The notes below the pieces were generated by a model. It did not search any database. It worked only from the letters and a program-made list of their open reading frames with translations, and was not told the origin of the DNA. Positions 28,871-29,062 of a stretch of 64,000 bases of DNA are shown here, in pieces. The translations under genes and the position numbers were made by a program. The stretch's first letter is position 1. The number at the start of each line of letters is the position of its first letter. Origin of the DNA: Octopus vulgaris (taxonomy: Eukaryota); assembly GCA_951406725.2 (NCBI GenBank), contig OX597838.1, forward strand, positions 14,942,001 through 15,006,000, in the 5' to 3' direction.

Positions 28871-29062
28871 TATAGAAGGAGCTTCTACAGGACTAGAACT
28901 GTTTCATTCAAAAGAAATCATCAGGAGCTTCCTGATGATTTCTTTTGAATGAAACAGTTCTAGTCCTGTAGAAGCTCCTTCTATAAAATAAATTAATTTA
29001 CTCTGCTATGTATTGAGTACCTTATTTACTGTGGTTAACCCCGACTCAACCCGGGACCTACA
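28871..29062 (+). mobile_element. Short Penelope-like (pseudo-LTR) element with 5' inverted duplication, in (TA)n
   Basis: 56-bp perfect inverted arms (28871-28926 / 28930-28985), hammerhead, AATAAA just downstream; (TA)n on both sides. Confidence 0.7.
28923..28979 (+). ncRNA. Type I hammerhead ribozyme inside a perfect palindrome
   Basis: AGGAGCUUC-CUGAUGA-u-UUC-uuuu-GAA-u-GAAA-CAG-uucuaguc-CUG-UA/GAAGCUCCU. Stem I 9 bp, stem II 3 bp with U.U closure, stem III 4 bp, GUA triplet; predicted cut after 28970. Confidence 0.85.

Follow-up and report, generated by a model that had tools for sequence, protein, structure and literature searches.

A perfect hammerhead palindrome in the Octopus vulgaris genome as one of many head-to-head stumps of a Penelope-like retrotransposon

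Introduction

How does a perfect palindrome, in which a hammerhead motif faces its own antisense copy, come to lie between two (TA)n runs, and is it a single accident or one product of a recurrent process? The question is raised by a locus in a 64,000-nucleotide stretch of the Octopus vulgaris genome (contig OX597838.1), the whole of which is called the window below. The initial annotation treated the palindrome as a recent event and ascribed it to a snap-back or template switch at stem I of the ribozyme during integration. Long perfect palindromes can also be products of assembly or library fold-back. As far as the available text of these sources goes, head-to-head pseudo-LTR (pLTR) palindromes with a one-sided tail have already been published, with antisense self-priming as the proposed cause (PMC3846280), how Penelope-like elements (PLEs) come to make tandem and inverted repeats whose tail sits on one side is named an open problem (PMC8557442), and hammerhead pairs on opposite strands, 100-700 bp apart, have been noted (PMC4209133).

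Materials and methods

Element positions are numbered from +1, which corresponds to A28926 of the window. Loci were fetched for all 68 clusters behind the first 100 matches of a 26-nt core, for 30 sites where the tail runs on, and for 55 more sites behind the first 100 matches of a downstream anchor; exact patterns served as seeds for these samples, most of which lie on a single contig. From 136 head-to-head pairs, 30 chosen for this junction and 4 chosen for the cut site were dropped, which left 102 pairs, one duplicated locus being counted twice. Bases inserted before +1 were counted by hand at the 45 loci starting at +1 among the 73 loci behind the first 100 of 194 entries.

Results

The two arms, at 28871-28926 and 28930-28985, proved to be exact reverse complements of 56 bp separated by the loop GCT, as had been annotated, and a 52-bp arm would be expected by chance about 1e-24 times within the 64-kb window. 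The outermost 4 bp of the left arm, TATA, are indistinguishable from the TA flank. The annotated hammerhead-type motif and its antisense copy could be located by motifs and pairing in the arms, and the AATAAA downstream and the (TA)n on both flanks were found as described (Table 1). On the plus strand CTGATGA starts at 28932, GAAAC at 28951 and AATAAA at 28987, GTA occupies 28968-28970, and AGGAGCTTC (28923) is complementary to GAAGCTCCT (28971), a pairing present on this strand only. The predicted folding energy of the long hairpin is -97.3 kcal/mol, compared with -15.5 kcal/mol for the arm-less 28923-28985 RNA, which agrees with the earlier suggestion that a read-through RNA would fold into such a hairpin. 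An ORF scan identified no host exon near the insertion site.

Table 1. Features of the palindromic insertion in window coordinates.
Feature	Position	Strand	Remark
Left (TA)n target microsatellite	28843..28874		TA on both sides in all 30 loci compared
Short arm: inverted element +5 to ~+60, hammerhead core to just before AATAAA, no tail	28871..28926	-	Short ends cluster at +60 to +72
Head-to-head junction	28925..28929		
Long arm: element +1 to +140, with putative RNA start, hammerhead, AATAAA and tail	28926..29065	+	137 nt 100% identical to the 5' pLTR of full-length copy L106
Type I hammerhead motif, predicted cut after A28970	28926..28976	+	Motif and pairing
AATAAA, at the short priming/ending site	28987..28992	+	5/179 short ends continue into poly(A) directly afterwards
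Tail, ~72 nt between the two putative priming sites	28994..29065	+	In full-length copies onward into 5' UTR and ATG; 60 matches
Right (TA)n target microsatellite	29062..29160		TA run

In the 2.8-Gb genome, a search with the 184-nt unit yielded 653 candidates. Each of the 40 that were scored is 99-100% identical, and 11 of these, this locus included, are exact over the 184 nt. The 26-nt core has 1,643 exact matches genome-wide, and the downstream anchor, which spans more subfamilies, has 7,715, that is, about 7,700 arms. Exact head-to-head junctions of this subfamily number 449 across the genome. A looser junction pattern was matched about 2,000 times per strand, against 18-30 times in the control, and about 14 of the first 100 entries were unrelated; the head-to-head junctions in (TA)n are therefore estimated at roughly 1,700. 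The palindrome is thus not a lone event but one of these junctions of a Penelope-like element. Among 50 junctions listed, 17 are perfect and AGCT-centred and 5 are of this copy's type. The collected genomic copies also do not share a fixed inversion point, which the initial annotation had put forward for checking; the point clusters at +1 to +7 instead. Contigs from three of four other public runs have loose ends that consist of the inverted arm right before +1, and these fit the AGCT-centred type, not this copy specifically. The view that the palindrome is young and was born at integration is accepted.

Full-length copies carry, in this order, a TATA-bearing upstream region, the hammerhead, AATAAA, the tail, a 5' UTR, an ORF, 2-5 kb of microsatellite-rich DNA and the repeat again. 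The ORF begins 55 nt after the tail, encodes 713 amino acids and is open over 713 codons in copy L117, where RWR, DKT, LYRDD, CxCX5C, VY..YIG, CxxC and CxH can be read. The Hydra-clade motifs take the form RWR, DKT, CNCPDKTTC, CDLC and CMH, and the endonuclease is C-terminal, which excludes the Naiad clade. Protein homologues at E<=1e-10 number 1,117; among the 120 matches listed, PF01541 was present in 2 and PF00078 in 1. A Pfam search with the full ORF and with pieces of it returned no reverse transcriptase (RT) or GIY-YIG match, only a sub-threshold VtrA_C. RVT_1 and GIY-YIG Pfam matches were rejected as those of this family because they belong to a different Penelope-like ORF, at L034:3800-6120, which is nested inside a copy of it. 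The pLTR-to-pLTR spans of 4.3-7.2 kb exceed the Hydra-clade limit of about 3 kb because of the microsatellite-rich 3' region; in the accessible part of PMC8557442 elements of the clade are said to be "generally" short. Judged by its motifs, a single RT/GIY-YIG ORF is linked to the repeat, and the pseudo-LTRs are direct or inverted with a one-sided tail, both of which are characters of EN+ PLEs; insertion into (TA)n together with a hammerhead is that of the Hydra clade. Any target-site duplication is masked by the (TA)n on both sides. On these sequence characters, the parent is a Hydra-clade Penelope-like retrotransposon, a new family of known architecture in a known clade, which is set apart from Hydra-1_Obim by comparison by eye.

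The predicted ribozyme has the CUGANGA and GAAA motifs, the GUH site and the three stems of a type I hammerhead, here as a core of CTGATGA and GAAA, a weak 3-bp stem II and a 4-bp stem III with a near-palindromic loop. The G10.1-C11.1 pair and a stable stem II are absent, U standing opposite U and being followed by 3 bp. The sequence upstream of +1 is not AGG in native copies, and the native stem I is therefore 6 bp long (AGCTTC/GAAGCT). The 9-bp stem I of the initial annotation is present as a plus-strand pairing, but its three extra base pairs come from the junction, of which they are an accident. Changes shared by subfamilies up to +58 are confined to N7, loop II and loop III and spare the core. 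For +1 to +68, folding into the native hammerhead is predicted at -7.4 and does not give the minimum-energy structure; modelling indicates that two molecules could pair through loop III (-12.8 kcal/mol), which resembles the intermolecular pairing described for PLE hammerheads. No hammerhead was found by Rfam in the whole window at the gathering score (0 matches), nor in the palindromes of three sister copies at E<=10, where only generic hairpin families appeared; the ribozyme call therefore rests on motif and pairing. A weak Hammerhead_HH9 match (E 2e-4, below the gathering score) lies at L152:934-1033, outside the family arms.

The predicted cut site was considered as a major template end and rejected. 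Arm breaks number 170 in the 6-nt bin at the cut and 119 in a 4-nt control bin, which corresponds to about 28 and 30 breaks per base, respectively; by hand count, 74 of 100 listed breaks fall within 2 nt of the cut, an excess of about 1.4-fold that is confounded by TA microhomology. Copies starting at +45/+46 do exist (L105, L108, L124, L194-L198). In L194-L198, head-to-head pairs have both arms starting at or next to the predicted cut, which hints that cut RNA sometimes serves as template. Short tandems occur in L124 and L104, their units starting exactly at the predicted cut (125 bp) or +1 (154 bp), and L122 (G000:C8:91474300-91484200) is a retrozyme-like tandem array with an inversion, whose 271-bp unit holds the TATA, the hammerhead, the tail and the ORF start. 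Loss or change of G that is private to one arm occurs at +45 to +49 (window 28970-28974) at seven times the background. Of 208 arms that lack upstream sequence, 41 are affected at positions 41-54, compared with 1 of 83 arms that have it and 1 of 21 solo arms. These changes may be sequencing errors in palindromes, and they were set aside as a mark of copying across the cut.

The inner ends of the arms point to the start of an RNA. Of the 94 pairs that combine a long with a short arm, 66 have the end of the arm that extends further at 0 to +2. In different upstream variants, and in 100 of 100 matches overall, a TATA box precedes +1 by 29 nt; these matches are inherited and not independent observations. 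Where arms start at +1 without touching a partner, G precedes 12 of 15; where (AT)n abuts +1 with a single inserted base, this base is G in 21 cases, C in 3, A in 3 and T in 1, and 4 further loci have no insert. With a background G frequency of 220/1,807 (12%), the excess of G (21/28) has p=3e-14. In the accessible text of PMC9341517, an untemplated 5' G in L1 insertions is read as a copied cap. On this pattern +1 is likely a capped transcription start, and the likeliest reason for an inversion at this place is the beginning of the RNA (TATA at -29, extra G) and not stem I, to which the fold-back point had originally been attributed.

The outer ends fall into two clusters, one between +60 and +72 and one at +140, and both sites are TA-like. 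The combination of one long and one short arm was found in 94 of 102 head-to-head pairs; each of the 6 pairs of two long arms includes an arm continuing into the element body, and the other 2 pairs are irregular. Of the 94 pairs of a long and a short arm, 25 have a long arm that extends further 5' and 30 a short arm that does so, and in 39 the two are equal within 2 nt. The gaps between arms are mostly 1-4 nt overlaps or small inserts, and the arms of L085 and L158 lack any overlap. Of 20 loci picked for the extra G, 10 consist of a solo short arm, 9 of a solo long arm and 1 of another arrangement; a long arm is therefore not required as the template of a short one. Among long insertions, ORF matches were obtained at 10 of 17 loci: 4 carry the ORF on the short arm, 4 carry it on the long arm and 2 are unclear. 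Five diagnostic bases are common to both arms in 87 of 96 pairs, compared with 35 after shuffling, in a set that includes the selected pairs, and both arms therefore come from the same source copy. In sequence terms, this shared haplotype would fit one RNA and two RNAs from that copy alike. Inner ends are also correlated away from +1 (L068, -30/-28; L070, -12/-9; L162, 32/31; L150, 10/10; L191, 12/12), and in L197 one foreign segment is present on both arms around a 3-nt loop. Junctions one deletion away from the perfect AGCT palindrome account for 28 of 94, this copy's type included, so that some of the two-sided asymmetry could be of post-insertion origin; 23 require bases to be added or changed. 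At the present junction, G28925 may be cap-derived, the arms then overlapping by 2 nt (GA), and a 1-nt deletion from the AGCT-centred type may equally lead to it.

Other repeats were noted in the window. A second palindrome, at 61919-62008, belongs to another repeat family and has 38-bp arms, AATAAA-like ends and (TA)n at the right; it is possibly a stump of the same kind. An imperfect, MITE-like palindrome of about 200 bp with a perfect core of 39 bp lies at 60640-60850 (8 matches in the window and the fetched loci), and an inverted repeat of 85% identity (28221-28280 and 28710-28766) flanks a microsatellite block. The common repeat at 29160-29300, which adjoins the right TA run, has 45 matches in the window and the loci and a minus-strand hammerhead-like half core, and is likely another (TA)n-targeting element.

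Discussion

This stump was probably made by twin priming on one capped, mostly uncut RNA, followed by microhomology joining. Both strands of the (TA)n target would be nicked and would prime reverse transcription on element RNA, one at about +140 and the other at about +68. Both cDNAs would then run off the RNA at its capped 5' end, where the hammerhead starts. Annealing of the cDNA ends via AGCT or the cap-derived base, with 1-4 nt of microhomology, would precede fill-in. We infer that both arms were copied from one RNA, a second enzyme displacing the first cDNA, and that the cDNA ends were joined by host or element enzymes. Long arms may reach the ORF by way of a read-through RNA, by jumping to the repeat at the 3' end or through a circle, the last of which has been proposed in the available text of PMC4209133. 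According to the accessible part of PMC11167929, purified PLE protein nicks and extends both strands, has two internal starts bounding the tail and uses uncut RNA, and the lack of a strong template end at the cut site is in line with this. The present copy is a promoterless stump and an ordinary dead locus, in which the hammerhead is likely a passenger.

A snap-back, in which the cDNA primed at +140 reaches the RNA end, folds, copies itself to an AT-rich stretch and joins the target, is unlikely, although it suits the geometry of this copy (long arm at +1, short arm at +5, 3-nt loop) and the fact that the long arm reaches 4 nt further here is compatible with it as well as with twin priming. 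It would also give both arms the same haplotype, the correlated inner ends and L197 agree with it no less than with a shared RNA end, and templated duplications at the junctions of L041, L044 and L063 speak for it. Across the family the evidence goes the other way: the short arm is the further-reaching one in 30 of the 55 asymmetric pairs, non-overlapping arms occur in two loci, half of the 20 loci picked for the extra G are solo short arms, 4 long insertions carry the ORF on the short arm, and the commonest junction, with 17 of the 50 listed, is a 4-nt overlap without a loop. The snap-back or template switch at stem I proposed for this locus thus fits the single copy and is contradicted by the family.

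The remaining explanations are less probable by far. That the palindrome is a non-autonomous mini-element copied whole from a master is quite improbable: the 11 copies identical over 184 nt would suit it, but they were chosen by similarity to this copy, the left end differs among otherwise identical copies, the same junction type recurs in mirror form and in several subfamilies, the unit is without a promoter, and the wide junction variety largely refutes it. Self-priming on an antisense template, offered for head-to-head palindromes of rotifer Penelope elements in the accessible text of PMC3846280, must be considered very improbable here, since the extra G and the TATA spacing indicate a sense, capped template ending at +1 and solo arms show the same end polarity. 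There is hardly any likelihood of a fold-back artefact of assembly or library, which the initial annotation had named as fatal to its reading. Long perfect palindromes can originate that way, but here the ends are element-specific and fixed, one arm is long and one short, the 449 exact junctions differ in flanks and in junction sequence, and independent contigs carry the inverted loose end.

Twin priming may extend beyond this family. We tentatively propose, with somewhat less than even confidence, that PLEs use it in a programmed form, in which a complex of two enzymes on one RNA would prime at two fixed sites, each serving one strand of the target. In its layout the pseudo-LTR would then resemble the retroviral U3-R-U5, with the hammerhead folded first in the capped transcript, and the palindromes would be pairs of strong-stop cDNAs whose jump to the RNA's 3' repeat had failed. 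If true, this would account for inverted pLTRs and the one-sided tail across PLEs. The value of the material lies in the population of copies and not in the individual locus, since the copies show their likely formation unusually clearly: well over a thousand natural events bear base-level marks, namely an RNA start indicated by the extra G, two priming sites, solo products and a near-strict pairing of one of each. These marks and the open 713-codon ORF make the mechanism open to a direct in vitro test. Moreover, the copies seed the genome with perfect hairpins of 55-70 bp, which could become substrates for RNA editing or small RNAs where host transcripts read through them. In the mainly non-subscription literature covered, no twin priming or cap mark was found for PLE palindromes.

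The comparisons that follow are with the available parts of the sources cited. The family shares with the Hydra clade a C-terminal GIY-YIG-type EN, the RWK-like, DKT and CxCX5C motifs, CxxC and CxH around E/N, the hammerhead and the (TA)n target, and differs from it in a 3' region of 2-7 kb of microsatellite-rich DNA (PMC8557442). The protein of Hydra-1_Obim resembles the octopus ORF by eye, whereas its listed hammerhead and 5' DNA differ, likewise by eye, and it is recorded without a pLTR (PMC8557442 and its supplement). Animal non-LTR retrozymes (10.64898/2026.07.22.740005) likewise carry a type I hammerhead and derive from PLE pLTRs, and the octopus family has formed tandem arrays (L122, L124, L104); this copy, however, is inverted and not tandem, has no unit between two cut sites, and its head-to-head form lacks the tandem units, each with a hammerhead, that define a non-LTR retrozyme. 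With inverted-pLTR EN+ PLEs (PMC3846280, PMC8557442) it has in common the head-to-head pLTR, the junction palindrome, the one-ended tail and microhomology joints, but the octopus tail is about 72 nt long compared with 30-40, minimal stumps dominate (about 1,700), and inner ends pile up at one base with an extra G. The Anolis Poseidon element in vitro (PMC11167929) offers two internal starts bounding the tail, nicking and extension on two strands, an AT-rich target and independence of hammerhead cleavage. In the text available it shows no start-site difference between strands, and inverted products are not addressed there, whereas octopus pairs nearly always consist of one of each site and the priming sites are TA-homologous to the target. 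In twin priming of LINE-1 (10.1101/2024.08.27.596794), both nicks also prime on one RNA, joining is by microcomplementarity, and deletion or duplication occurs at the inversion point; L1 primers, however, lie at the poly(A) and at a chance site, whereas both octopus sites are fixed and near the 5' end, and both octopus cDNAs likely reach the cap, which gives the palindrome.
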